Source: a virus
Direction: 5' to 3' (one strand)
IMG/VR virus record: IMGVR_UViG_3300033802_000281
Length of the DNA stretch: 64,000 bases
Under the pieces are notes generated by a model, which saw only the letters and a program-made list of their open reading frames with translations, was not told the origin of the DNA and searched no databases. Position numbers and translations under genes: made by a program. This document shows positions 5,243 to 64,000 of this stretch, in pieces (the stretch's first letter is position 1; each line of letters opens with the position of its first letter).

Positions 5243-5998
5243 TTAACTAGCCTCCTTATTGTTTTTTTTTAGATATGTCTCGACTTCTTTAATATATTTT
5301 CCAACAGTTTGTCTATTAAGTCCGTACATTTCTGCTATCTGAATTCGAGTTAATTTATCTTTCTTGTTTAACTCATACATTTTAAGTTTTTCATCGAAAG
5401 TGAAATACTTTCCAGGGAAGCGAGCTTTTATCATATTTTCCACATGCTCTTTACTTTGCTTTCTTCCAGTTAATGCTCTTCTCATATTCTCAATATGTTG
5501 CGGTGACAATCCACCATAATTTACATTATTTTTACCCTTGCGCAATTCACTTAATTTCTTTCTTGTCTCTTCACTATGTTTAAATCCTTTTAATTTTTTC
5601 CTGATTTTTTCACGATGTTCTAAAGTTATAACCTTACCTTTGTTTGACTCGCTAATTTTTCTTTTAACTTCTTCTGGCCATTCAAAATTATCATATCCAC
5701 CGTGTCGATTATTGAAACCATGTTGCAATGAATCATAGTAGTCAATATAGTATTTTTCTTTTTCATCAAGTTCTTCTATTGAACAGTATTCTAACACTTC
5801 AAATTTAAAGTAATTTTCACCATGTTTATTATAAGAATTCTGAAGATGTTTATTTGGATGACAATTGTATTTTAACCATCTTTTATGAGTTTCTAATCTC
5901 ATGTTTACATTCTTACTTACACCGATATAACACTTTCCATTTGCTGTATTTGTTATCTTATATACACCACTGACAATAGGAGTCGCCGGAACTGGCAT
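5243..5998 (-). CDS. Free-standing GIY-YIG homing endonuclease with NUMOD3 repeats and C-terminal HTH
   Basis: SGVYKITNTANGKCYIGVS...R...E; HSEETRKKLSE NUMOD3-type repeats; RBS GAGGTG before ATG 5998. Confidence 0.9.
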   Translation of the reverse strand: MPVPATPIVSGVYKITNTANGKCYIGVSKNVNMRLETHKRWLKYNCHPNKHLQNSYNKHGENYFKFEVLEYCSIEELDEKEKYYIDYYDSLQHGFNNRHGGYDNFEWPEEVKRKISESNKGKVITLEHREKIRKKLKGFKHSEETRKKLSELRKGKNNVNYGGLSPQHIENMRRALTGRKQSKEHVENMIKARFPGKYFTFDEKLKMYELNKKDKLTRIQIAEMYGLNRQTVGKYIKEVETYLKKNNKEAS

Positions 5999-51696: not shown

Positions 51697-52758
51697 ATGA
51701 CAACTACCTATGCTGTTCTTCTTCCTAATAATCAAAATGTTTTCAAAGATATTCAATCATTTTTAGATGAATATCCAAATAAAAAAACAAAAATTGAATA
51801 CAGAAGAGATATCGAGCAATTCTTTAGATTTCTGCATAACATTAATCTTCAGGAAATTACAACTTATCACATTTACAACGGCCCTAATCACGAGCCTCTA
51901 CAACGGAAACATGTTATATTGTATCGAAATCATTTGTTGACTGCACCGGGAGAAAGAGGAAAAATAAATTCCGCTGGCACTATAAACCGAAAAATTGGAA
52001 CAATTAAAAATTTGTATAAATACCTTGAAAAAGAGTATAACTATAAGATCAATCATTCTATTTTTAATATTGATGCACTTGTCTATGAACCTAAAAAATT
52101 TGACATTATTAAAAAAGAAGATGTTACAAAATTAGCTGATCTCGCGTTGAATCTTAAGTATGGACATCAGCTAAATGTGTTCATTTACCTTGCAACTGTA
52201 ACCAGTATTCGAGTATCAGCGTTGTTGAAGATTAATAAAACTGATATAGTCAAAGATTACTATACTGATTTTTATCTTGTAAAAACAGTGGATAAACGAA
52301 ATCAACTAAGGCAATGTCCGATTGAAAAATGGTTATATGAAATGATCGAAAATCTAATAAAGGAACATGGTAAAGATCAAATTTTCCCTGATTTGACCGT
52401 TGACTATGTTAATAAATCCATAAAAAAACTCAAAAAAGAAGCTAAATTGCCTGATCATCTCCGTATTGTCACACATTCTCTTCGTAAAGTTGCACCGTCG
52501 TATGAAATGAAAACAGTCGGAAATGTAAGGAATGGAATGGTTCAGACTGGCCATAGATCGGTTCAAACATTTCTTGATACTTACGTTGAAAAAGAAGTTG
52601 ACTATAATCAGTTAGCTGGAATTCGAATGTTTAGAACAATTGATGAAAGTGTTTTTGAAATAGTAGATAAAACAGATATTCTTCAACTTCTTAAAACAAT
52701 TAATCCTGTCGCATATGAGCAACTAGCGCTCGCTATTAAAGAGTATATTGAAAATTAA
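51697..52758 (+). CDS. Tyrosine recombinase/integrase-family protein
   Basis: TSIRVSAL, HSLRK, GHRSVQTFLDTY; SAM-like N-terminus. Confidence 0.85.
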   Translation: MTTTYAVLLPNNQNVFKDIQSFLDEYPNKKTKIEYRRDIEQFFRFLHNINLQEITTYHIYNGPNHEPLQRKHVILYRNHLLTAPGERGKINSAGTINRKIGTIKNLYKYLEKEYNYKINHSIFNIDALVYEPKKFDIIKKEDVTKLADLALNLKYGHQLNVFIYLATVTSIRVSALLKINKTDIVKDYYTDFYLVKTVDKRNQLRQCPIEKWLYEMIENLIKEHGKDQIFPDLTVDYVNKSIKKLKKEAKLPDHLRIVTHSLRKVAPSYEMKTVGNVRNGMVQTGHRSVQTFLDTYVEKEVDYNQLAGIRMFRTIDESVFEIVDKTDILQLLKTINPVAYEQLALAIKEYIEN

Positions 52759-52852
52759 ATTGACAAAAATATAAAAGCTCTGATATAGTATAAAGCGCAA
52801 TAAAATGCGCTTTTTTATATTTTATTTTAAAAATAAGAAAAAGGAGAGGACT

Positions 52853-55099
52853 ATGAATTCTGATTTAATTGAAGTGACATTAATTCCTTGGATTAAGCGT
52901 TATCCTAAGCATAATAATTCTAGTGACTATTACATTTATGTGTGTAAAACAGAAGATGATAGAATTGAAAAAAATATGGTTGGCGGTCAGAAAGCTGTGA
53001 CAATCAAGGGAAATATGCCTGAACTTGAGATTGGTATGCCTTACAAGGCACTTCTCAAATTTGCGGATAAACATGAAACCTTTGGTGTAAGTTATTGGGT
53101 TGAGTCGATTTTTCAAGACATTCCAACAGATGCAAAAAATCAAAAAGCTTTTCTTTCGGCTCTATTGACAGAGCGACAAGTAGAAGAAATCTATAAAATA
53201 TATTCAGAAGAAGATGATATTGTCCAACTTATCATTGACGGAAAATTTGATTATGAAAAAGTACATGGTATTGGCCCTGTATATTACGAACGTATTAGAC
53301 AAAAACTAATTGAAAATATGGAGTATCGTGAACTGATTAGTTTGCTTGGTGGTAGTGGTATTCGATTTGATAAAGTTGTTTCCGAATTTGGATCGGCAAA
53401 GTTTGCAGTATTTCAGATTCGTGAAAATCCATATAACCTGATGAAAGTAAGTGGGGTTGGATTCATCAAGGCAGATGCGGTTGCACAACGAATGGGGATA
53501 GAAAAAACTAATCCTTTTCGTATTGACGCAGGCATAAAACATGTAATAACAGAAGAACATAATGATGGACATACATATGTATATAGTGACGAACTCATTA
53601 AACGTTGTACTCAAATTCTAAAAATTGATTCTGAACTTATACAAAATCGATTATCTGATACATTAGATATCATAATCATAGAAAATCGAGTGGCATTGCA
53701 ACATACATATCAGTGTGAATTGACAATTGCAAATAAAATTCATGAATTGCTTAAAAATAGCGAAGAACTGAAATTTGATCCAGAAGATTTCATTAAGCGA
53801 ATGGAAGATAAATATCAAATTAAGTTGACCGATCAGCAAAAATCATTTTTTAATAATATCAAAAAACATGCGGTAAACTTACTCGTTGGTTATGCTGGAA
53901 CCGGGAAAAGTCAAATGATGAGTTTGCTAAAAGATTTGCTTGATGAAATGAATAAAACTCATGTATGGTTCAATACATCAGTTTATCTTACTCCGACAGG
54001 AAAAAGCGCGAAAGTTCTAACAAAATACTTAAAAGATCGAACAGCATATACAATACATAAACATATCGGCTATGGATTACCAAAAGAATTGTATGATGAA
54101 GTTGAAGTTACACAAGATTTTATCATTGTTGATGAGACATCAATGGTTGATATTTTTATTCTTTCAAGCTTGCTCCAAAAAATAAAAAATAAAAAAGCTA
54201 GAATATTATTTGTTGGCGATGCATTTCAGCTTCCTTCCGTTTCTGCTGGAAATTGTTTACATGATATGATTGAAAGTGGTGTAATTCCAACAACAAAGTT
54301 AGATATTGTGTTTCGCCAATCAGAAGGTGGTATTTTAGATATTGCAACAAGAGTTAGAAAAGGCGAAAAATTTATTGAAAATGACTTTGAAGGAAAACAG
54401 TTATTTGGTAATAATCTCTTAATTCACTCTGTAGACCAAAAACATATGGTTGACGGATATAAGTATTACTATAATCAATTATTAAAAAAATATAGGCCAG
54501 AAGATATTATGGTACTTTCACCTAGAAAAAAATTTGATCTCGGTACTGTAGCTATTAATAAAACGATACAGGAAATTGTTAATCCGGCTATTGAAGGGAT
54601 TACAAAAGAAATAGGATTTGGCGAAAACAATTTCCTTAGAACTGGAGATTATGTTATAAACACTCGAAATGTAGATTTAAATCTTGTTAACGGTGATACG
54701 GGGATTGTTATAGATTTTATTTATACTTCTGATAAAAATTCTGACAATAAATCGTCTCTTGAAAAATATAACGATAAAGAGGAAAAGAGCGGAATTCTTA
54801 TTGATTTCGGCTTCGAACAAAGATTAATATCTTTTGAGGATAAGCATCAACTGCTTCATGCGTGGTGTTTAACCATACATAAAAGTCAGGGCAGTAGTGC
54901 AAAATCAGTACTTATTGTACTGGACAAATCTCATAAGTTTCAAGTTACAGCAAATTTACTCTATACCGCGCTTACTCGTGCAGAAGAAAATGCTATTTTA
55001 TTGTGTCAAGCCGATGTTATCAATTATGCGATGCGGAATGTTGAGAATTTGATGAGAAATACATTTTTATGTGAGATGCTTAAAGGAAAGATAGTTTAA
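52853..55099 (+). CDS. recD2: RecD2-like SF1B helicase
   Basis: HhH motifs VHGIG and VSGVGF; GYAGTGKS, PTGKSA, VDETSM, GDAFQLPSV, FRQ, TIHKSQG, LYTALTRA. Confidence 0.9.
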   Translation: MNSDLIEVTLIPWIKRYPKHNNSSDYYIYVCKTEDDRIEKNMVGGQKAVTIKGNMPELEIGMPYKALLKFADKHETFGVSYWVESIFQDIPTDAKNQKAFLSALLTERQVEEIYKIYSEEDDIVQLIIDGKFDYEKVHGIGPVYYERIRQKLIENMEYRELISLLGGSGIRFDKVVSEFGSAKFAVFQIRENPYNLMKVSGVGFIKADAVAQRMGIEKTNPFRIDAGIKHVITEEHNDGHTYVYSDELIKRCTQILKIDSELIQNRLSDTLDIIIIENRVALQHTYQCELTIANKIHELLKNSEELKFDPEDFIKRMEDKYQIKLTDQQKSFFNNIKKHAVNLLVGYAGTGKSQMMSLLKDLLDEMNKTHVWFNTSVYLTPTGKSAKVLTKYLKDRTAYTIHKHIGYGLPKELYDEVEVTQDFIIVDETSMVDIFILSSLLQKIKNKKARILFVGDAFQLPSVSAGNCLHDMIESGVIPTTKLDIVFRQSEGGILDIATRVRKGEKFIENDFEGKQLFGNNLLIHSVDQKHMVDGYKYYYNQLLKKYRPEDIMVLSPRKKFDLGTVAINKTIQEIVNPAIEGITKEIGFGENNFLRTGDYVINTRNVDLNLVNGDTGIVIDFIYTSDKNSDNKSSLEKYNDKEEKSGILIDFGFEQRLISFEDKHQLLHAWCLTIHKSQGSSAKSVLIVLDKSHKFQVTANLLYTALTRAEENAILLCQADVINYAMRNVENLMRNTFLCEMLKGKIV

Positions 55100-56507: not shown

Positions 56508-57100
56508 TTGGAAAAAAGAGAAAAAAAATAAAAGAAAGATGGTTTAAGAATCATAAAGCAACCTTGAAACAGTATGGAGATTTACAGGTATTTGATTGAA
56601 AGGAACCGGAGAAAATTTATTATTATTGCAGATACGTGTTTGATGGAAACAAAATGTATATTAGCGGAGATATTGGTGAAGCTGTTTTTGTTTTAACATG
56701 GAAAGCTGATGTACATTCGTTTAATGATGTGAGTATTGACTATTTTGAAAGTAAAATGGCATCCTACAATGATGAAAGGAGAAATTTTAATAATGATAAA
56801 GCGATAAAAAGACTTAGAGAATGGTTAAAAAATATAAAAAATAGAGATGAACAATATGATCACGACAAAATGAGAGAATTGTTTGATGATGCAAGAAGTT
56901 GTGTATCAAAAGAAGAGTGGGTGAGCATTGTTAACTTAAATAGTGGTTGGATTAGTGAGTTGGATTGTGATTATTGGGAATGGATTTATGATATTAGTGA
57001 TGAAATTCCGATGAAGGTGTATGGATATTTGGTGGGATTACAGATAGCAAGTGAACAATTGAGGAGAAAGGAATATGAAAAAGATACCGAGAAATCCTAA
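56508..57100 (+). pseudogene. Probably degraded phage hypothetical gene
   Basis: Coding-like sequence (WFKNHKATL..GDLQVFD*KEP) extends upstream of ORF 56636 through TGA 56597; the RBS-linked TTG 56508 is out of frame across an A8 run. Confidence 0.55.
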
Positions 57101-57287
57101 TAAAAGACCTTGTATTGCAAAAAACATTACTTTTCCTATTCAGAGAGAAAATGAAGAATGGATAAGGGTGTTGAAAAATTTATCTAAAAATAATAAAAAA
57201 TAAAAAGGAAATTAATTAGGTGGATACATTCCACTTTTTATATTTGTTATTTGAAAAATTCAATTTAATATAGTATGATTTTTAGAA

Positions 57288-57680
57288 ATGACCACGAATG
57301 GAGAGAATAGTGTGGAAAAAATCAGAGCGATTAGAAAAAGAGTTGGAGAAAATTTAGAGTTTTTTGAATTAGAAAATGAATTAACAGCTTTGCAAGAAGT
57401 AGTTGGTGGATATTTAGAAGTGGTCAGGTTGCCTAATGATATTGTGCTTTGGTGTAATGAAGAAGGATTACTACAAGGTTTACCACAGAATTTAATACTG
57501 ATGGGAGATAAAAATGTACCGATTGTTGGCGATGTGTTATTTACAAGTACAAATATAAGAGGAGATACAACGGGTTTAAATGAATTACAAATGGTTTGGA
57601 TTATAAATAGGACAAAGATTATTGGAAAAGGAGAATATGACGGGGTAGAATATTTTTTATACGGTTTGAATTGTGGGTGA
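57288..57680 (+). CDS. DUF3846-like protein
   Basis: LQEVVGGYLEVV...CNEEGLLQGLPQN...IVGDVLF. Confidence 0.75.
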   Translation: MTTNGENSVEKIRAIRKRVGENLEFFELENELTALQEVVGGYLEVVRLPNDIVLWCNEEGLLQGLPQNLILMGDKNVPIVGDVLFTSTNIRGDTTGLNELQMVWIINRTKIIGKGEYDGVEYFLYGLNCG

Positions 57681-58315
57681 GTAGATTCGATACCCACTCT
57701 TTTTATTGGATTTTTAGATGTCGAGAGTAGATGGTGAATTTGTTAATAAAATGTGTATAAATATAGGGGATTTGGGAAGATGATTGAGATTGTGAGGAGG
57801 GAAGAAGGAGGTAGATGATCGGTAAAAGAGGTATTTTTATAGGGAGATTTAGATTGGAAATGGTGGAATAAAGGATGAAATATGAAATTTGTGTGTAGTG
57901 AAAATGGCTATTATTATACATATTTTACGACACCTAATCTGATAGTACCTTGTCTGTCGAATCAGATTTTCAACTTTGTGACTGAAAAAGACGTGCTAAA
58001 GGAAAATCTGGAAAAATGACATCTAATGGAAAATGAAAACTATCCCCCCTCCCTATCCATCCGCTAAAAATCCGCATACTAATAGTGATTAGTAAGTAAA
58101 GGCACGGAGCGAGCTATTCGGGTGTGGTCGGATTGGTGAAGGGAGGTAAAGGGTTCTGGATAGTGGAAAAAAATGTTAAAAATAGAAGGCCAGGCGCATA
58201 GATACATTTTGTATCATAATGATACATATTGTCGCCATGGTAACATGGCGGCGACCGCTGAAGACTTTCTTACAAAAAACATACAAAAAATATACAATCA
58301 AAAGTAAAATATATA

Positions 58316-58344
58316 TTGCGTTTATCTGTCCGATATGGTATAGT
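58316..58344 (+). promoter_or_regulatory. Early SigA-type promoter with extended -10
   Basis: TTGCGT-17-TATAGT with TG; A-rich UP region. Confidence 0.7.
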
Positions 58345-58429
58345 ATAAGTAATAATATTATGAGAGAAAGAGGAAATCGAACTTATTCCGGCCTAAGGCC
58401 ACCCACAAATTACATAGGAGGTTTTAAAA

Positions 58430-58699
58430 ATGCAACTCAAAAAGTCCGATTTTATTCGCGAAATCGTCCGTTGTATCGTCGAAGACAGTGAACACATTTA
58501 CAACGCCGTCGCTTCCGCAGCCGTCCATTTTGCCGAGCAAGGTTACACAACTATTGATGACCAAAACATCATGGGATACATCCTCAACACCATTGACCGC
58601 ATAAACATCAAAAACAGCGTCCGCGAGTGGTGCGAAGAGCGCGGCATCAAATACAACGATGAAGACAATGTATATTGTCTCCTCGCCGAATTAAGATAG
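58430..58699 (+). CDS. Early hypothetical protein
   Basis: AGGAGG RBS, own promoter, followed by T-rich hairpin. Confidence 0.7.
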   Translation: MQLKKSDFIREIVRCIVEDSEHIYNAVASAAVHFAEQGYTTIDDQNIMGYILNTIDRINIKNSVREWCEERGIKYNDEDNVYCLLAELR

Positions 58700-58964
58700 G
58701 CCTAACGGCCTCTTTTTACGGCCTCTTTTTTTGCCTTTTTCCGCCCACCACCTCACCCACAACACATCACACATCACAACCCCTGGCCTACCAATATCTA
58801 CCATATAACACCATACAACACGCAACGCAACATATATAACAGCTACAAAAGCACAAGCGCCGCTAACAAAAAAACTTCGGCTGACTAATTAACAAACAAA
58901 TGCAGTGCCGAAATCTGCTGTAACGTAATTGGCTGTAACGTAGTATTCACGTTACAGCGGCGCA

Positions 58965-58999
58965 AAAAGGGGGAATCAGCGAATAACTCTCCTTTTTTT
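58965..58999. terminator. Bidirectional terminator-like hairpin
   Basis: AAAAAGGGGGA...TCTCCTTTTTTT. Confidence 0.55.
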
Positions 59000-59075
59000 G
59001 TCACGTACAACCAACTTAAAACTTAACATCAAAAATAAAAAATAAAAAAATCAAAAAAAAAGTGTCTAGAATATG

Positions 59076-59103
59076 TTGCATATCTATATAGATATGGTAT
59101 AAT
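59076..59103 (+). promoter_or_regulatory. Early SigA-type promoter with overlapping palindrome
   Basis: TTGCAT-16-TATAAT with TG; perfect palindrome CATATCTATATAGATATG at 59079-59096. Confidence 0.7.
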
Positions 59104-59174
59104 GGGATACAGATAAAGCACATTAAATGCTTATTTGATTATCATATTAAAATAAAACAATGGAGGAATAAAAA

Positions 59175-59816
59175 ATGAAAAAAGTAAAATTGCAATACGA
59201 GAACATACATATAACAGAATCCGGCGTTAGATATTGGGACATTGGGCAGGAGATGGAACTGATTTATATTATCGAGACAACACGAAACGATGAAGACGTA
59301 AAAAATGATTATTCTAACATTATCCAAAAGGAATGTCATTCACTTAATGAATTATTTAAAATCTTTAACGAGTGGCAAAAAGCAGGTTATAAAAATATTC
59401 AAATTGTAACTAACGTCAAGCATAACAACGAAACAATTATAGAAGACGTTTCGGAATGTCTGGAATTGTCTGTTAACAGCGCAGAAATGAATAATCTAAA
59501 AGATGATAGCAAACAGTTACAAAAAACCAGAGAACAAGTCGCAACATATGACGGATTTATAAAGCATTACAAAGCAGAAAAGGCATTCGAAAAGTATTTG
59601 AAAGAAAGAAATGCGGAAAAGAATAAAGATCAAAACGGTTTATATTGGTACGAAATGCGTTTACGTCCATTATCCATTGGAAGCCAGCCGAACGGATTTA
59701 TACAGATAGACGACACAAAAGGCAGACACGGCATTATAGCATATAACAGGCCGTTGACGCAAAATGAAATAAACGAATATGATTTAAGTTTATGGGAAAT
59801 AACATCAATAATATAA
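59175..59816 (+). CDS. Protein with C-terminal DarA_C-like (defence-against-restriction) domain
   Basis: YWYEMRLRPLSIGSQPNGF...GRHGIIAYNRPLT..EINEYDL. Confidence 0.6.
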   Translation: MKKVKLQYENIHITESGVRYWDIGQEMELIYIIETTRNDEDVKNDYSNIIQKECHSLNELFKIFNEWQKAGYKNIQIVTNVKHNNETIIEDVSECLELSVNSAEMNNLKDDSKQLQKTREQVATYDGFIKHYKAEKAFEKYLKERNAEKNKDQNGLYWYEMRLRPLSIGSQPNGFIQIDDTKGRHGIIAYNRPLTQNEINEYDLSLWEITSII

Positions 59817-59840
59817 TATTAATATTGGAGGCATAACATA

Positions 59841-59889
59841 GTGCAAGCCGAGGCCGCCCCGAGAAATCGAGGCGCGGCGCTCAACCTGT
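59841..59889 (+). ncRNA. 3' half of a split twister-sister-like ribozyme
   Basis: GTGCAAGC-CGAGGC-hairpin-CGGCGCTC^AACCTG; lacks the GCAGGGCTAGGCC 5' strand locally. Confidence 0.7.
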
Positions 59890-59922
59890 AATGCAGGAAT
59901 TATCAAAGGAGGATTGATTAAC

Positions 59923-60138
59923 ATGACGAAAACTCGCCGCATCGTTGCTCAAATCATCCATGCGCTCCGTCGTTACGACATCCCGTATATCGTCCACGAC
60001 GAAGCACTCCGTCACGGGATCGCACCATCCGTCGTCATCATGACCGACTGGCATATCATCGTCATTGACGGTTTGCATGTGACCATCGATGACAAGCCTG
60101 TCCGCTCTATCCAATCGCTTATTGATGCTGTCGCTTGA
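59923..60138 (+). CDS. Early hypothetical protein
   Basis: AAAGGAGG RBS after the ribozyme half. Confidence 0.7.
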   Translation: MTKTRRIVAQIIHALRRYDIPYIVHDEALRHGIAPSVVIMTDWHIIVIDGLHVTIDDKPVRSIQSLIDAVA

Positions 60139-60177
60139 TAGCGTCATAAAAATAAAATATAAAGGAGAGTGTAACAA

Positions 60178-60471
60178 ATGTCCATCACGAAAGCAAATCA
60201 AATCATGGCATGCGCCCGTGGCGCATGGCAACGAGAAATTGCGTATCGTCTTGCTAGCGGCGACGCGATCCAGTCCCCGCATAACACGCTGCGCGGCGCG
60301 GCCAAAAACTACCAAATTCGTTACGCCGCCAGCTTCCGAAATCTTGTCCGCCGCATCGAAGCCGCAGGCTTTCGCGTCGTCCGCACTCCGGGTGTTCGCG
60401 GCGGCGAATACAGCGCTACCTATCGCGTATATCCCGCTACAGGGGCGATGGTCGCGGGAAGTCGCAAATAA
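60178..60471 (+). CDS. Early hypothetical protein (GC-rich)
   Basis: AAGGAG RBS; 97 aa. Confidence 0.7.
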   Translation: MSITKANQIMACARGAWQREIAYRLASGDAIQSPHNTLRGAAKNYQIRYAASFRNLVRRIEAAGFRVVRTPGVRGGEYSATYRVYPATGAMVAGSRK

Positions 60472-60518
60472 AACACAACAACAAAATAAAAATAAAAAAT
60501 GCAAAGGAGAACATAAAC

Positions 60519-61046
60519 ATGGAAATGAGAATCTATGTTGCAAATCTGGCCGCATACAATGCAGGCTTTCTTGTTGGCGAATGGATCGACCTTCCGCTTG
60601 AAAAAGATGAACTGTGGTCACGTATTCAAAAAATTCTTGACAAATGGAACGATGGATGCAGACCTTCAGAAGAATGGGCAATTCATGATTATGAAGGATT
60701 TCCGTTTGAAGTTAGTGAATATAGCAATGTTGACAAACTGAATAAGATTGCAGAAACGCTTAACAATCTTAATGAAGACGAAGACGTAATTAAGGCTGTC
60801 TTTGATCTCCTCAACCGTGACGAAGCACTTGAAAAGCTCCAAAATGGAGAATACCGCGTTTATGATGACTGTGACAGCATGGGTGACGTTGCTTATCAAT
60901 TGTATGAGGAATCCGGCAGACTTGCGGAGATTGAAAAAGTTATATCTTCATCCTACATTGATTGGGAAGTAATCGGACGTGATATGGAAATTGAGGGAAC
61001 ATTTAAATACATCGGAAACAGCCGATTTGTTGAAATCATTGACTAA
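60519..61046 (+). CDS. ardA: Antirestriction protein ArdA (DNA mimic, type I RM inhibitor)
   Basis: RIYVANLAAYNAG.LVGEWIDLP...EEWAIHDYEG...SYIDWE.IGRDM; highly acidic. Confidence 0.92.
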   Translation: MEMRIYVANLAAYNAGFLVGEWIDLPLEKDELWSRIQKILDKWNDGCRPSEEWAIHDYEGFPFEVSEYSNVDKLNKIAETLNNLNEDEDVIKAVFDLLNRDEALEKLQNGEYRVYDDCDSMGDVAYQLYEESGRLAEIEKVISSSYIDWEVIGRDMEIEGTFKYIGNSRFVEIID

Positions 61047-61104
61047 ATACAATTTATAACATAGAAAACGAGCGAATTACAATTTAATAAGGAGGATAAC
61101 AGTT

Positions 61105-61440
61105 ATGAATAAATCAATTATTATAGACGTTTCGCCATATATTGCACAACAATGGGTTAAATATAATGGCGATTTAAATAAAAAACAATGGTTAAAAAAC
61201 AATGGTTTAAAAAATCAAGTCATCAATTATATTAAGTCTAAGCTTTGTAATCATAATTTCTACACTTTACATGATGCTACATATCGATTTAAAATATTTG
61301 ATAGTCAAATACAAGATGTTATTATTAACATTAAATGGAGTGGTAAAGAGAACATAGAAATATGGAAAAATCAAGTACAAGAAGACTATATATCTATTTG
61401 TAGTATTTTCGCTGGAAGGTTTATTGTAACTAAAAAATGA
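61105..61440 (+). CDS. Early hypothetical protein (AT-rich)
   Basis: AAGGAGG RBS. Confidence 0.65.
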   Translation: MNKSIIIDVSPYIAQQWVKYNGDLNKKQWLKNNGLKNQVINYIKSKLCNHNFYTLHDATYRFKIFDSQIQDVIINIKWSGKENIEIWKNQVQEDYISICSIFAGRFIVTKK

Positions 61441-61449
61441 TTATTAAGT

Positions 61450-61477
61450 GCAGGGCTAGGCCCAGCCTTGTGAAACC
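61450..61477 (+). ncRNA. 5' half of a split twister-sister-like ribozyme
   Basis: GCAGGGCTAGGCCCAGCCTTGTGAAACC; complementary to the half at 59841. Confidence 0.7.
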
Positions 61478-61533
61478 TATCCGCCAGACGGCGGTGATGG
61501 TCACGGGAGACCACAGAAATGGAGGGGATAACG

Positions 61534-61719
61534 GTGGAAGTAAAGCCCGGAATGATGGTATGGTCGGAAGTACTCGGAGCAAACGTTGAAGTGCTCCGGG
61601 TATATAAAAGCACAGCAACCGTCCGCGTATGGGGGCGCGGGCTCGCGGAAGGTAAACTTATGACCTTTCGGGGTCAACGACTCGACAGTTTACACCCCAA
61701 ACGGGAACAGCAGGGCTAG
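61534..61719 (+). CDS. Small early hypothetical protein
   Basis: GGAGGGG RBS, GTG start; stop TAG lies inside the ribozyme 5' strand. Confidence 0.65.
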   Translation: MEVKPGMMVWSEVLGANVEVLRVYKSTATVRVWGRGLAEGKLMTFRGQRLDSLHPKREQQG

Positions 61720-61779
61720 GCCCTACCCCGTGAAAGCCGGGTTCGGCGGAGAAACCCCGCCGCGGCGCTCAACCTGCTG
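61708..61779 (+). ncRNA. Twister-sister self-cleaving ribozyme (three-way-junction type)
   Basis: P1 CAGCAGG/CCTGCTG, internal loop GCTAG/GCTCAA, P2 GCC/GGC, hairpin CCCG-TGAAAGC-CGGG, hairpin CGGCGG/CCGCCG; matches the TS ribozyme pattern as I recall it; predicted cut 61770/61771. Confidence 0.85.
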
Positions 61780-61818
61780 GATGATAGGGCAGGAAATTCA
61801 ATCGAAAGGATGATTTAC

Positions 61819-62157
61819 ATGAACATTGTGAACCTCACCCCGCATGACATCGTGGTGATCGCAGAAGACGGAACCGAATTCCGCCGCTATCCCGCATCGG
61901 GCACCATCGCCCGCGCCGCATCGATAACGGAGATCATCGGCGAGCTGGACGGAGTTCCCGTCGCCCGACAGCAGTTCGGTGAAGTCTCCGACCTGCCCGA
62001 TCCCGAGCCGGGCACCGTCTATCTCGTCTCGCTGGTGGTCGGACAGGCTCTGAAGGGTCAGCGGAACGATCTCTACGGCGCGGACACGTCGCCGGAAGGT
62101 GCTATACGGGACGCGGAGGGGCGGATCGTCGGCACCCGGCGGCTGGTGAAATATTGA
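61819..62157 (+). CDS. Phage hypothetical protein (NLTPH motif family), GC-rich
   Basis: IVNLTPHDI...LPDPEPGTVYLVS...IRDAEGRIVG. Confidence 0.75.
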   Translation: MNIVNLTPHDIVVIAEDGTEFRRYPASGTIARAASITEIIGELDGVPVARQQFGEVSDLPDPEPGTVYLVSLVVGQALKGQRNDLYGADTSPEGAIRDAEGRIVGTRRLVKY

Positions 62158-62169
62158 GGAGGTATTTCT

Positions 62170-62349
62170 GTGGACAGAATGAAATTCTTCTCTTCCTATC
62201 CCACGCACGAAGCACGTGATGAAGTGATGACGTGGTTTGGGTACGAGAACATCGAACGTTGCCGTTACGTGGATCACTCCAACGGGTATACGGATGTATA
62301 CATTCCCGGCGATCTGGCCGAAATATGGGATCGCTGGGCGCAGGGCTAG
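62170..62349 (+). CDS. Small early hypothetical protein (59 aa; below ORF-track cutoff)
   Basis: GAGGAGG RBS, GTG start, ends CAG GGC TAG inside the ribozyme. Confidence 0.65.
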   Translation: MDRMKFFSSYPTHEARDEVMTWFGYENIERCRYVDHSNGYTDVYIPGDLAEIWDRWAQG

Positions 62350-62404
62350 GGAGTGCGCCGAGAATCCCGGCGCGGGCGCGTCTAGCGCCCTCCGCTCAAC
62401 CTGT
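62340..62404 (+). ncRNA. Twister-sister-like ribozyme variant
   Basis: GCAGG-GCTAG-GGA...TCC-GCTC^AA-CCTGT with two internal hairpins; compensatory P2 change; loop AGAATCC. Confidence 0.7.
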
Positions 62405-62439
62405 GAAAGCAGGAAATATTTAAAAGGAGGATGATGATC

Positions 62440-62670
62440 ATGAAAAAATGGTATGTTGACCAAACGTTTGTCCGCGAGGGCCGGGAGTACGACAGAGGCT
62501 ATTACATCCGCGAGGATGGCGTGATCGAGTGGGCGGAGCCGATTCCGAACGGGGAGGCATACGAATTCCCGATCAACGAATGCTTCCATCCTTCCGGGCC
62601 GCTGTCCAGCGAGCCGGGAGATCCGATCAGTGTCGAGGATGGAGAACTGCTCGGGGAATTGGTAGAGTAG
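62440..62670 (+). CDS. Small acidic early hypothetical protein
   Basis: AAAGGAGG RBS; stop abuts the next ribozyme. Confidence 0.7.
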   Translation: MKKWYVDQTFVREGREYDRGYYIREDGVIEWAEPIPNGEAYEFPINECFHPSGPLSSEPGDPISVEDGELLGELVE

Positions 62671-62738
62671 CAGGGCTAGGGAGACGCCGGAGAATCCCCG
62701 GCGAGCCGCTTATAACAGGCGGCTTCCGCTCAACTTGT
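62670..62738 (+). ncRNA. Twister-sister-like ribozyme variant
   Basis: GCAGG-GCTAG-GGA...TCC-GCTC^AA-CTTGT with two internal hairpins; loop AGAATCC. Confidence 0.7.
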
Positions 62739-62774
62739 GATAATGCAGGAATTATCAAAGGAGGATTGATTAAC

Positions 62775-63428
62775 ATGTTTGTATACCATAATGCAATTTG
62801 GACTGGAAAGAAGTGGAAAGATCAAATATATCTGGAACTCGAAAAAACGAGACGTGGCTTCTATGCCGCATGGGAGGCTGGAGGGGGCCATACCAATACA
62901 GGTTCGGCCCAACTCATAGCAAACGCCGACGGTTCAAAGAAAAAACCGATCTTCATCCCGAAACGCGGACCGAAATGCGGCGGACATGCGTTATTCGTGC
63001 TCGAAGTAAACGACATTATCATTAGTACATATCATCATCGCAAAAACTTCGAGCACTATGTCTATCGAGTCAAAAGAATACGGCCCCTTTCCAGGAGGTT
63101 TTGGGCCGACAAAGACGAGTTGAATTATCACACACCGTTCGAATTGGCGGTGTTCGACATCAAAGATAATATCGAGGAAGGGGAGATTCCTCGAAATATA
63201 TCACTTATGGACATCAATGTTTCCCTTACACACGAAGAAACAAACAGCGTTTGGATTAAATACGAAACCGGCGAAATGGTCGCCGATCTCGAAGTCTTAA
63301 ACTGGTTCCATGAAGGAAAATGGAAAAAAGGAGGTGAACCTAGTGGGCCCGTTGCAGATGCTATACGGGTCGCTACGAAAAAGGCTACCGATTTCCATTG
63401 TCGGAAGCCGTATTATTTCAAGCGCTGA
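62775..63428 (+). CDS. Early hypothetical protein
   Basis: True start ATG 62775 after AAAGGAGG; WEAGGGHTNTGSAQLIA...GHALF...HCRKPYY. Confidence 0.7.
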   Translation: MFVYHNAIWTGKKWKDQIYLELEKTRRGFYAAWEAGGGHTNTGSAQLIANADGSKKKPIFIPKRGPKCGGHALFVLEVNDIIISTYHHRKNFEHYVYRVKRIRPLSRRFWADKDELNYHTPFELAVFDIKDNIEEGEIPRNISLMDINVSLTHEETNSVWIKYETGEMVADLEVLNWFHEGKWKKGGEPSGPVADAIRVATKKATDFHCRKPYYFKR

Positions 63429-63556
63429 CTGGATCGCCATAAAGGAGGAATTAGATGTAACAATCCGCTTCCTCATGCAAACACGATTCCGCCGAGCGCG
63501 GATGGTTTAAATGTTGGAATGCCTTAATAGAAAAAAGATTGAAAGGAGAATGTAAC

Positions 63557-63736
63557 ATGTCTAACATCAACATTTTTAACAAACCTAAATATGTTATTGA
63601 ATTTTATCGTAACCATGATCCTAACATAAAATGGAAATTTTTTGTTCGTGCCAATTCGGAAGAGGAAGCATTAAAGGAGTTTTTCAAGGAATTTAATAAT
63701 ATTAAAATTGAATATATTGACCTTTACGAAGAATAA
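63557..63736 (+). CDS. Small hypothetical protein
   Basis: AAAGGAG RBS; VRANSEEEALKEF motif. Confidence 0.6.
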   Translation: MSNINIFNKPKYVIEFYRNHDPNIKWKFFVRANSEEEALKEFFKEFNNIKIEYIDLYEE

Positions 63737-63843
63737 CAGGAAGTGTAAAGGTATTAACAGACATACCGGATGTTTTTTTTGATATAACAGCAACGTAACA
63801 GACAACGAAATACTCATTTCATTCCATGAAAGGGTGAGAAGCC

Positions 63844-63996
63844 ATGTATAAGTTTTTGACTAAAAGACTTGCTAAAAAATTAGGACTTTGGGTTTCATAC
63901 ACAAACGGAATATTTATTGCAGATGTTCGCGGATACTCAATTGCAAAACATTTTGATTCTTGGAAGTCCGCTTATCGATTTTTGAAGTGCCTATAA
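63844..63996 (+). CDS. Small hypothetical protein (50 aa)
   Basis: AAGGGTG RBS, hand-translated. Confidence 0.45.
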   Translation: MYKFLTKRLAKKLGLWVSYTNGIFIADVRGYSIAKHFDSWKSAYRFLKCL

Positions 63997-64000
63997 AATG

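Follow-up and report, generated by a model that had tools for sequence, protein, structure and literature searches.

Results

An array of twister-sister elements among small genes of a temperate phage

The DNA analysed here (the window) is a stretch of 64,000 nucleotides (nt) of the IMG/VR virus record IMGVR_UViG_3300033802_000281, and it belongs to a temperate tailed phage, probably one of Bacillota. Terminase and structural genes lie on the minus strand, and a block on the plus strand opens with an integrase (51697–52758) and a RecD-like helicase (52805–55099). Further along this block, at several junctions between small genes that include a DarA_C-like gene, the anti-restriction gene ardA and a Crn4b-like ring nuclease gene, lie GC-rich structured elements of the twister-sister self-cleaving ribozyme type, called A to E in this text. 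The original prediction, made from the letters of the DNA, had described them as an array that cuts a polycistronic early mRNA into short units. The features of the region are collected in Table 1.

The 5′ motif of the elements, CAGGGCTAGG, occurs four times in 64 kb, always on the plus strand (61451, 61711, 62341 and 62671), with 0.56 occurrences expected by chance. The 3′ motif, CGCTCAACYTG, also occurs four times (59878, 61766, 62393 and 62727; 0.63 expected), a count reached in none of 100 shuffles. Both motifs stand at ribozyme spacing at three places, A, B and C; at 59841 (D) only the 3′ motif is found, and at 61451 (E) only the 5′ motif. A filter-free covariance-model scan of the window found no copy beyond A–E. 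All five elements of the GC-rich array lie where they had been described, each on the coding (+) strand. Their placement at gene junctions holds for these sites and does not extend to every junction, because no element was present at 60139–60177, 60472–60518, 61047–61104 and 62158–62169.

Minimum free energy folding of A, B and C gave in each case the same three-way junction, composed of P1, an internal loop, a P2 of 3 bp and two hairpins. The three copies read CAGG-GCUAG-NNN ... NNN-GCUCAA-C(C/U)UG, and their identical L1 strands contain the residues implicated in catalysis by the crystal-structure paper (PMC5660989). The conserved L1 nucleotides (G5, C6, A8 and G9 on the 5′ side; G59, C60, U61 and C62^A63 on the 3′ side) are present in all three copies; D is without the 5′ strand of this loop and E without the 3′ strand. 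A has GCC/GGC as its P2, and B and C both have GGA/UCC; this is the covariation that had been noticed from the sequence.

Covariation among relatives of the elements

The Rfam twister-sister model RF02681 matched 61708–61781 with 49.8 bits and so passed its gathering score of 34. This ribozyme, A, was the sole report of an Rfam scan over the whole window (1–64000, gathering scores), in which no group I intron was matched either, and D and E gave no Rfam report.

A pattern scan of IMG/VR yielded 34 loci (L001–L034), several of them with arrays, and a covariance model, R1, was built from 35 non-redundant copies. The R1 scores were 73.1 bits for A, 68.3 for B and 63.9 for C, all three being in the training set, and 20.4 for D and 10.3 for E. 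Over the window and the IMG/VR loci, R1 found 52 instances. RF02681 passes 16 of the 49 that lie outside the window, the other 33 being under or outside its threshold; that is, the curated Rfam model misses about two-thirds of this Bacillota-phage clade, and the subclasses with P2 GGA/UCC and GUU/AAC are largely invisible to it. A scan of genome contigs gave 39 pattern matches, mostly by chance, and 11 instances in 10 Bacillota loci that scored at least 54 bits with R1. All of these strong instances come from Bacillota, among them Butyrivibrio, Tissierella, Clostridiaceae, Halanaerobiales and Paenibacillus.

In an alignment of 44 distinct sequences fitted to the model, 91.8% of cells were paired, compared with 65% in shuffled alignments (0 of 500 reached the observed value) and 35–49% in slid controls; in the unfitted alignment, pairing was 88.7%, against 66.3% in shuffles. 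Two-sided changes were found in the fitted set at five of six P4 pairs, at all six P5 pairs and also in P2. Moreover, the tertiary pair T2, formed by a junction nucleotide and position 6 of the P4 loop, is C-G in 20 unique sequences and G-C in 14, exceptions being confined to the GUU class; it is C-G in A and G-C in B and C. A joint swap from U..A to A..U is seen at positions 1 and 5 of the loop, in which G2 and A4 are invariant among the relatives. In the three-way crystal structure (5T5A), T2 is the Watson–Crick pair C14-G27, which joins a junction C to a P4-loop G, and the loop nucleotides 1 and 5 are likewise paired (PMC5660989). Every copy reads GCUAG instead of GCAAG in L1, so that position 7 is U, which is tolerated, as the A7U mutant cleaves like the wild type (PMC5660989).

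Because T2, the loop pair 1/5 and the stems co-vary, we regard B and C as members of a compensated class that the curated model under-detects, and not as decayed copies. The twister-sister identity of the original prediction is upheld accordingly, for A by its Rfam match and for B and C by their place in a subclass defined by the covariation of relatives.

Two further variants were seen among the relatives. In the GUU class (L010:4507–4580, L026:134–203 and L005:346–418), which is absent from the window, the junction C and a loop U cannot make the standard T2; the loop sequence is either UGAAAUU or GGAAGUU, and a longer junction reads C(A)UAG. A shortened twister-sister-like element without the P4 hairpin occurs at L016:9928–9983, L019:9494–9549 and L022:2384–2439 (48.8 bits with R1), with a different structure downstream, and these contigs also carry CRISPR repeats.

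Truncated copies and predicted cut sites

Element D keeps the P4 loop GUGCAAGCC, the P4 3′ strand, P5, the P2 3′ strand, GCUC^AA and CCUG. Its 5′ strands are replaced by AT-rich sequence, without the GCU of L1, a proper P1 5′ strand or the P4 5′ strand, and its mismatches to R1 all lie on the 5′ side, at a score of 20.4 bits against 64–73 for the intact copies. Element E retains the 5′ portion, namely P1 5′, GCUAG, P2 5′, the junction, P4 5′, a loop UGAAACC and a P5-like hairpin; the scissile strand is missing, and the fold obtained for E is a local hairpin. D is predicted to be inactive in cis and E to be inactive, and they probably represent dead remnants that record turnover of junction modules. 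A 16-codon open reading frame (ORF; GTG...TAA, 59841–59891, +) overlies D with GGAGG 8 nt upstream. It is probably a chance ORF, and its translation would cross the former ribozyme.

The C^A steps at 59882/3, 61770/1, 62397/8 and 62731/2, at which cleavage had been proposed, are all correctly placed within the motif. We predict cleavage at 61770/61771 (A), 62397/62398 (B) and 62731/62732 (C), the sites of the intact copies. A cut at 59882/3 is unlikely, because D lacks the GCU of L1 and proper 5′ strands of P1 and P4, and the G5A mutant of the known ribozyme is almost inactive (PMC5660989). Since D appears inactive, ardA would stay in a long 5′ unit instead of being released as a short one; its flanks hold dead remnants only, and no intact ribozymes enclose it closely. 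From cut to start codon, the window shows 39–43 nt, compared with the 40–48 nt given earlier.

Three cuts would give four RNAs. RNA 1, a long 5′ RNA, would run to 61770 and include ardA, the DarA_C-like gene and further genes; RNA 2 (61771–62397, 627 nt) would carry the Crn4b-like gene and the 59-amino-acid ORF; RNA 3 (62398–62731, 334 nt) would carry the 76-amino-acid ORF; and RNA 4 would be a 3′ RNA that begins with the 217-amino-acid ORF. Each of the upstream RNAs would end in a compact ribozyme body with a 2′,3′-cyclic phosphate.

Layout of the junction module

The layout around the ribozymes was tallied over 42–45 unique instances. The stop codon of the upstream ORF is at +6, as the UAG of L1, in 17 instances including A and B, and at −3, as a UAG directly before P1, in 10 instances including C; with one exception, it falls within 10 nt before P1 in the others. 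On the other side, the start codon follows the cut by a median of 41 nt in the clade. Two nucleotides past the predicted cut, the P1 3′ strand CCUG(N), a short loop and (N)CAGG can form a hairpin. This CCUG/CAGG hairpin was found in 38 of 44 unique 3′ products, compared with 11 expected (maximum 21 in 1000 shuffles). For A and B, the minimum-energy fold before cleavage keeps the ribozyme, and the 3′ product then forms the hairpin from nt 3 with the Shine–Dalgarno (SD) sequence unpaired.

The leader behind the truncated D is related to that behind C. Its 3′ 35 nt, AATGCAGG...TTAAC (59888–59922), are identical to the leader after C, and with the ATG included the identical run is 38 nt (59888–59925 = 62740–62777).

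Genes of the array and their recurrence among relatives

Judged by its DarA_C-like, ArdA and Crn4b-like products, the operon is anti-defence in character, and the presence of ardA and of a DarA_C-like gene, as proposed, agrees with matches to PF07275 and PF18789. The ArdA match (132.8 bits, cut-off 27) spans residues 5–165. The PF18789 match (42.2 bits, cut-off 27) is confined to residues 156–205 of 213; being a domain match, it does not prove a Dar function.

The Crn4b-like gene, which had not been named in the original prediction, sits directly behind ribozyme A. Its product aligns with PDB 9r7b over residues 4–113, with NLTPHD on LTPHD (His) and the R of AIRDAEGR on the R of EVRDATGR; these His and Arg residues are named as catalytic in Crn4 (PMC12830947). 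Hence, the protein is a candidate anti-type III CRISPR, or anti-cyclic-oligoadenylate, protein.

Table 1. Elements, predicted product hairpins and genes between 59175 and 63428 of the window (aa, amino acids)
Feature	Position	Strand	Remarks
DarA_C-like gene, 213 aa	59175–59816	+	PF18789 E 1.1e-10; PHROG 1926 'released from the phage upon host infection'; first recognisable array gene
Relic D	59822–59891	+	3′ two-thirds of a class-1 twister-sister
Leader after D	59885–59922	+	hairpin CCUG/CAGG, SD GGAGG
ORF, 71 aa	59923–60138	+	
ORF, 97 aa	60178–60471	+	homologue in the ArdA/twister-sister array of L011
ArdA anti-restriction gene, 175 aa	60519–61046	+	PF07275 E 2.1e-38; PHROG 2059
ORF, 111 aa, AT-rich	61105–61440	+	
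Relic E	61448–~61500	+	5′ part of a class-1 twister-sister
ORF, 61 aa	61534–61719	+	GTG start after GGAGGGG; stop is the UAG of the ribozyme A L1 loop
Twister-sister ribozyme A	61708–61781	+	three-way-junction type, class 1 (P2 GCC/GGC, loop UGAAAGC, T2 C-G); Rfam RF02681, R1, fold
Predicted hairpin on 3′ product of A	61773–61793	+	begins at nt 3, re-uses P1 3′ strand CCUGC
Crn4b-like ring nuclease gene, 115 aa	61810–62157	+	PDB 9r7b E 6.7e-13; PADLOC Unk_01 E 3.6e-20
ORF, 59 aa	62170–62349	+	stop is the UAG of the ribozyme B L1 loop
Twister-sister ribozyme B	62338–62406	+	class 2 (P2 GGA/UCC, loop AGAAUCC, T2 G-C); R1, fold, class covariation
Predicted hairpin on 3′ product of B	62400–62413	+	CCUGU-GAAA-GCAGG; SD stays unpaired
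ORF, 76 aa	62440–62670	+	stop UAG directly before P1 of C; homologue in L011 array
Twister-sister ribozyme C	62668–62740	+	class 2, G-U pair in P1; Rfam 32.6 bits, R1, fold
Predicted hairpin on 3′ product of C	62734–62749	+	CUUG...CAGG; competing GAUAAU/AUUAUC hairpin
ORF, 217 aa, orphan family	62775–63428	+	homologues directly follow a twister-sister in eight other loci

The last gene of the array, at 62775, encodes an orphan family with the invariant motifs WE.GGG.TNTG.A, HALF, HHR and HCR. No match to this protein was found in Pfam, PHROGs, NCBIfam, PADLOC, a PDB sequence search, the ESM Atlas or a homologue search, and its AlphaFold2 (AF2) model (pLDDT 78.8) gave no fold match with Foldseek against the PDB. 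In the eight loci mentioned in Table 1, its homologues (including L013:387–1061(−), L006:3183–3593, L025:9979–10422(−), L043:677–1114 and L020:4181–4600(−)) follow twister-sisters of every subclass. From the ATG on, the 62775 gene shares about 90% DNA identity with L013 and L014, and the ribozyme and leader that precede it differ from theirs in class and sequence. The twister-sister arrays of L011 and L030 contain copies of ArdA that are 66% identical, along with homologues of two further genes of the array, and array genes found again in other arrays stand there in a different order. Within 57000–64000, GC content falls to 24–35% in 61000–61400 and 63500–64000 and reaches 55–66% in 59900–60400 and 61450–62750, a mosaic that suggests cassettes from higher-GC phages. 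A megablast of 59100–63500 found nothing similar in the phage collection; the nearest record is a fragment of 14 kb (G001), which has no twister-sister.

Other ribozyme classes occupy similar positions among the relatives. In the densest array, L010:4507–6855 (+), one type II hammerhead (5354–5419) accompanies five twister-sisters, which belong to two subclasses, within about 2.3–2.4 kb; each element precedes a small gene. A type II hammerhead also stands inside the twister-sister array of L031. Two large phages, L074 and L075, whose DarA_C-like gene is 40% identical to that of the window, carry no twister-sister; a pistol ribozyme of 55 bits (L074:9628–9693 and L075:9619–9684, +) stands in them behind a small ORF and ahead of the SD/ATG of a 933-amino-acid ORF. 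Since ribozyme classes appear to be interchangeable in the same slot, cleavage itself would be what matters.

Discussion

The sequence, structure, covariation, module layout and gene identities described above are best explained, at a probability of about 0.7, if A, B and C are functional three-way-junction ribozymes on the coding strand of a long counter-defence transcript, each set in a fixed junction module; cleavage in vivo, a single shared transcript and its purpose are what we infer from them. According to this explanation, the upstream ORF would end at the UAG of L1 (GCUAG) or at most 10 nt before P1, and the ribozyme would fold during transcription and cut at GCUC^AA. The released 3′ RNA would begin with a 5′-OH and two A's, and the CCUG freed from P1 would pair with the downstream CAGG to give a 5′-proximal hairpin, followed by an A-rich linker, the SD sequence and a start codon about 40 nt past the cut. 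The purpose may be the uncoupling and the stabilising or standardising of individual messages, much as with the engineered RiboJ insulator.

Several points weigh against this explanation. B was not reported by RF02681 even at E ≤ 10, and C, searched alone, fell slightly short of the gathering score with 32.6 bits. The training members of R1 include A, B and C themselves, so the R1 scores of these three are not independent; the search pattern fixed P1 and L1, which are thus unable to show covariation; and the shuffle statistics overstate the support, since the sequences are related and the 44-sequence alignment was fitted to the model. For C in a longer context, the minimum-energy fold is not the ribozyme. 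One shared transcript and early expression are suggested only by gene orientation and by the lack of predicted terminators (no plus-strand terminator-like site in 58711–64000), and the stabilising role of the hairpin and of the 5′-OH is taken from other systems, in which RNase J1 prefers 5′-monophosphate ends and 5′ stem-loops protect mRNAs (PMC7509114).

The Rfam results for B and C, their P4 loops, which depart from the conserved GUGCAAGCC at three to four positions, and the weak P1 (G-U) and alternative fold of C in context might mean that only A is active and that B and C are decaying, non-cutting GC-rich structured spacers. We consider this quite unlikely, as their combination of loop and junction recurs in 14 unique sequences from many contigs, and the changes are compensatory (T2 as G-C, loop positions 1 and 5 as A..U) with fully co-varying stems and an invariant L1, which decay would not preserve; moreover, the true relics D and E look quite unlike them. 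It is hardly credible, in our judgement, that the structures are non-catalytic in vivo and serve either to bind proteins or to block 3′ exonucleases between cistrons. Such a function would suit the compact, GC-rich form of the three-way junctions and their position immediately behind stop codons, and the biological role of the twister-sister class is unproven (PMC6765202). However, the invariant nucleotides are those of the catalytic L1 and of the SL4 loop of a proven ribozyme class, and a hairpin that takes over a P1 strand makes sense only after release of that strand; a barrier function of the cleaved 5′ product is, on the other hand, compatible with cleavage by A, B and C.

The elements might also matter mainly as DNA, as conserved junctions for recombination of gene cassettes, with RNA cleavage being incidental. 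The GC mosaic, with flanks of 24–35% against 55–66% across 61450–62750, the near identity of the 62775 gene to L013/L014 from the ATG behind a differing ribozyme and leader, the identical leaders after C and D, the two truncated copies and the reordering of array genes would all fit. We nevertheless think it unlikely, since the breakpoint is seen at the start codon and not inside the ribozyme, RNA pairing (a tertiary pair included) and the catalytic loop are clearly under selection, every copy is on the coding strand, and unrelated ribozyme classes in the same slot are not predicted by it; roles in DNA exchange and in RNA cleavage are not mutually exclusive. For D and E, it is conceivable that, as two halves, they make up a single discontinuous (permuted) twister-sister, which would assemble over the 1.6-kb ardA cassette and cut at 59882/3 once E has been transcribed. 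Discontinuous hammerheads occur in mammalian Clec2 3′ untranslated regions and offer a precedent. The 5′ part of E and the 3′ part of D can pair in P1 (CAGG/CCUG), in P2 (GCC/GGC) and in P4 (GCCUUG/CGAGGC, six of six pairs, one of them G-U); the junction C of E could make T2 with the loop G of D, and P5 is intact in D. We judge it very unlikely nonetheless: joined E and D do not fold as a ribozyme, because the 5′ part of E makes its own stable hairpin (CAGGGCU/AGCCUUG), unlike A, B and C, which attain the ribozyme fold unaided, and the P4 loop would stay unclosed. Moreover, the halves overlap instead of abutting, each carrying a P4 loop and a P5-like hairpin, as would be expected if two copies with similar ancestors had decayed separately. 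The distinctive P4/P5 sequence of D had no exact match in IMG/VR, so that no relative was found in which to check a split arrangement, and L074 and L075, relatives through the DarA_C-like gene, carry no twister-sister.

Returning to cleavage by A, B and C, a more far-reaching proposal is that the stop codon, ribozyme, strand-switch hairpin and SD sequence together form a natural portable insulator, which would provide each counter-defence gene with the same RNase J-resistant 5′-OH leader regardless of the upstream sequence, with U7 selected as a built-in stop. We put it forward tentatively and hold it to be rather doubtful. Since module and ORF exchange independently, phages could in that case plug new anti-defence genes into a ready-made slot, and the module might be a usable part for the engineering of Gram-positive bacteria. 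Apart from this proposal, the locus is a compact natural test bed, with three intact copies of two subclasses, two dead copies as internal controls, a defined leader of hairpin and SD sequence, and downstream genes with assayable phenotypes (ArdA and Crn4b-like). Moreover, covariation in natural sequences backs T2, the tertiary pair that the crystal structure of the three-way form shows.

Comparison with known systems

The elements share with the known twister-sister ribozyme (RF02681, 5T5A) P1, the L1 strands GC.AG/GCUC^A, a 3-bp P2, the junction, a P4 with a 7-nt loop closed by G-C, and P5, as well as the T2 contact of a junction nucleotide with loop position 6. They differ from it in that this clade has U for A at L1 position 7 and an A after the scissile A, and in that B and C have T2 inverted to G-C, loop pair 1/5 inverted and GGA/UCC as P2. 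In the early region of phage T7, intercistronic RNase III sites cut polycistronic RNA into stable hairpin-ended units. These sites resemble the present elements as structured elements between early or anti-host genes; T7 needs a host enzyme, whereas the elements described here would be protein-independent.

Ribozyme arrays around phage ardA are not new. Clustered hammerheads flank prophage genes, with a triple one around ardA in Agrobacterium tumefaciens; this arrangement showed activity both in vitro and in vivo, and the authors proposed that long phage transcripts are processed in this way (Perreault et al. 2011, PMC3088659). The hypothesis is taken up again in a 2019 review, with the purpose still undefined, which regards the role of twister-sister, as of most bacterial self-cleaving ribozymes, as open (PMC6765202). 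The likeness is that of several self-cleaving ribozymes on one strand between small accessory prophage genes including ardA. The ribozyme class and the host phylum are different, and in the window ardA stands beside dead remnants only; the order of stop codon, ribozyme, hairpin and SD sequence is given here in more detail than we found in that study (PMC3088659). For Crn4, rare phage and plasmid orthologues have been described and proposed as anti-CRISPRs (PMC12830947; PDB 9r7b, 9sma and 9qs9). The 115-amino-acid protein, a candidate member of this family, is homologous to Crn4b over its full length and retains the catalytic His and Arg; we did not find a placement of such a gene behind a ribozyme described. 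Four details may be new, namely the class-2 subclass missed by Rfam, the stop codon in L1, the hairpin that shares a P1 strand, and the Crn4b-like gene behind a ribozyme.

The module as a whole may be compared with RiboJ, which consists of the sTRSV hammerhead and a 23-nt hairpin before the ribosome-binding site and raises mRNA and protein (PMC6206723). Ribozyme, hairpin and ribosome-binding site follow in the same order, and cleavage would leave a defined, hairpin-bearing 5′ end in both. RiboJ is engineered, contains a hammerhead and has an independent hairpin, whereas the hairpin of the phage module re-uses the P1 3′ strand and would form only once P1 opens. The parallel is therefore one of functional analogy and not of family relationship.

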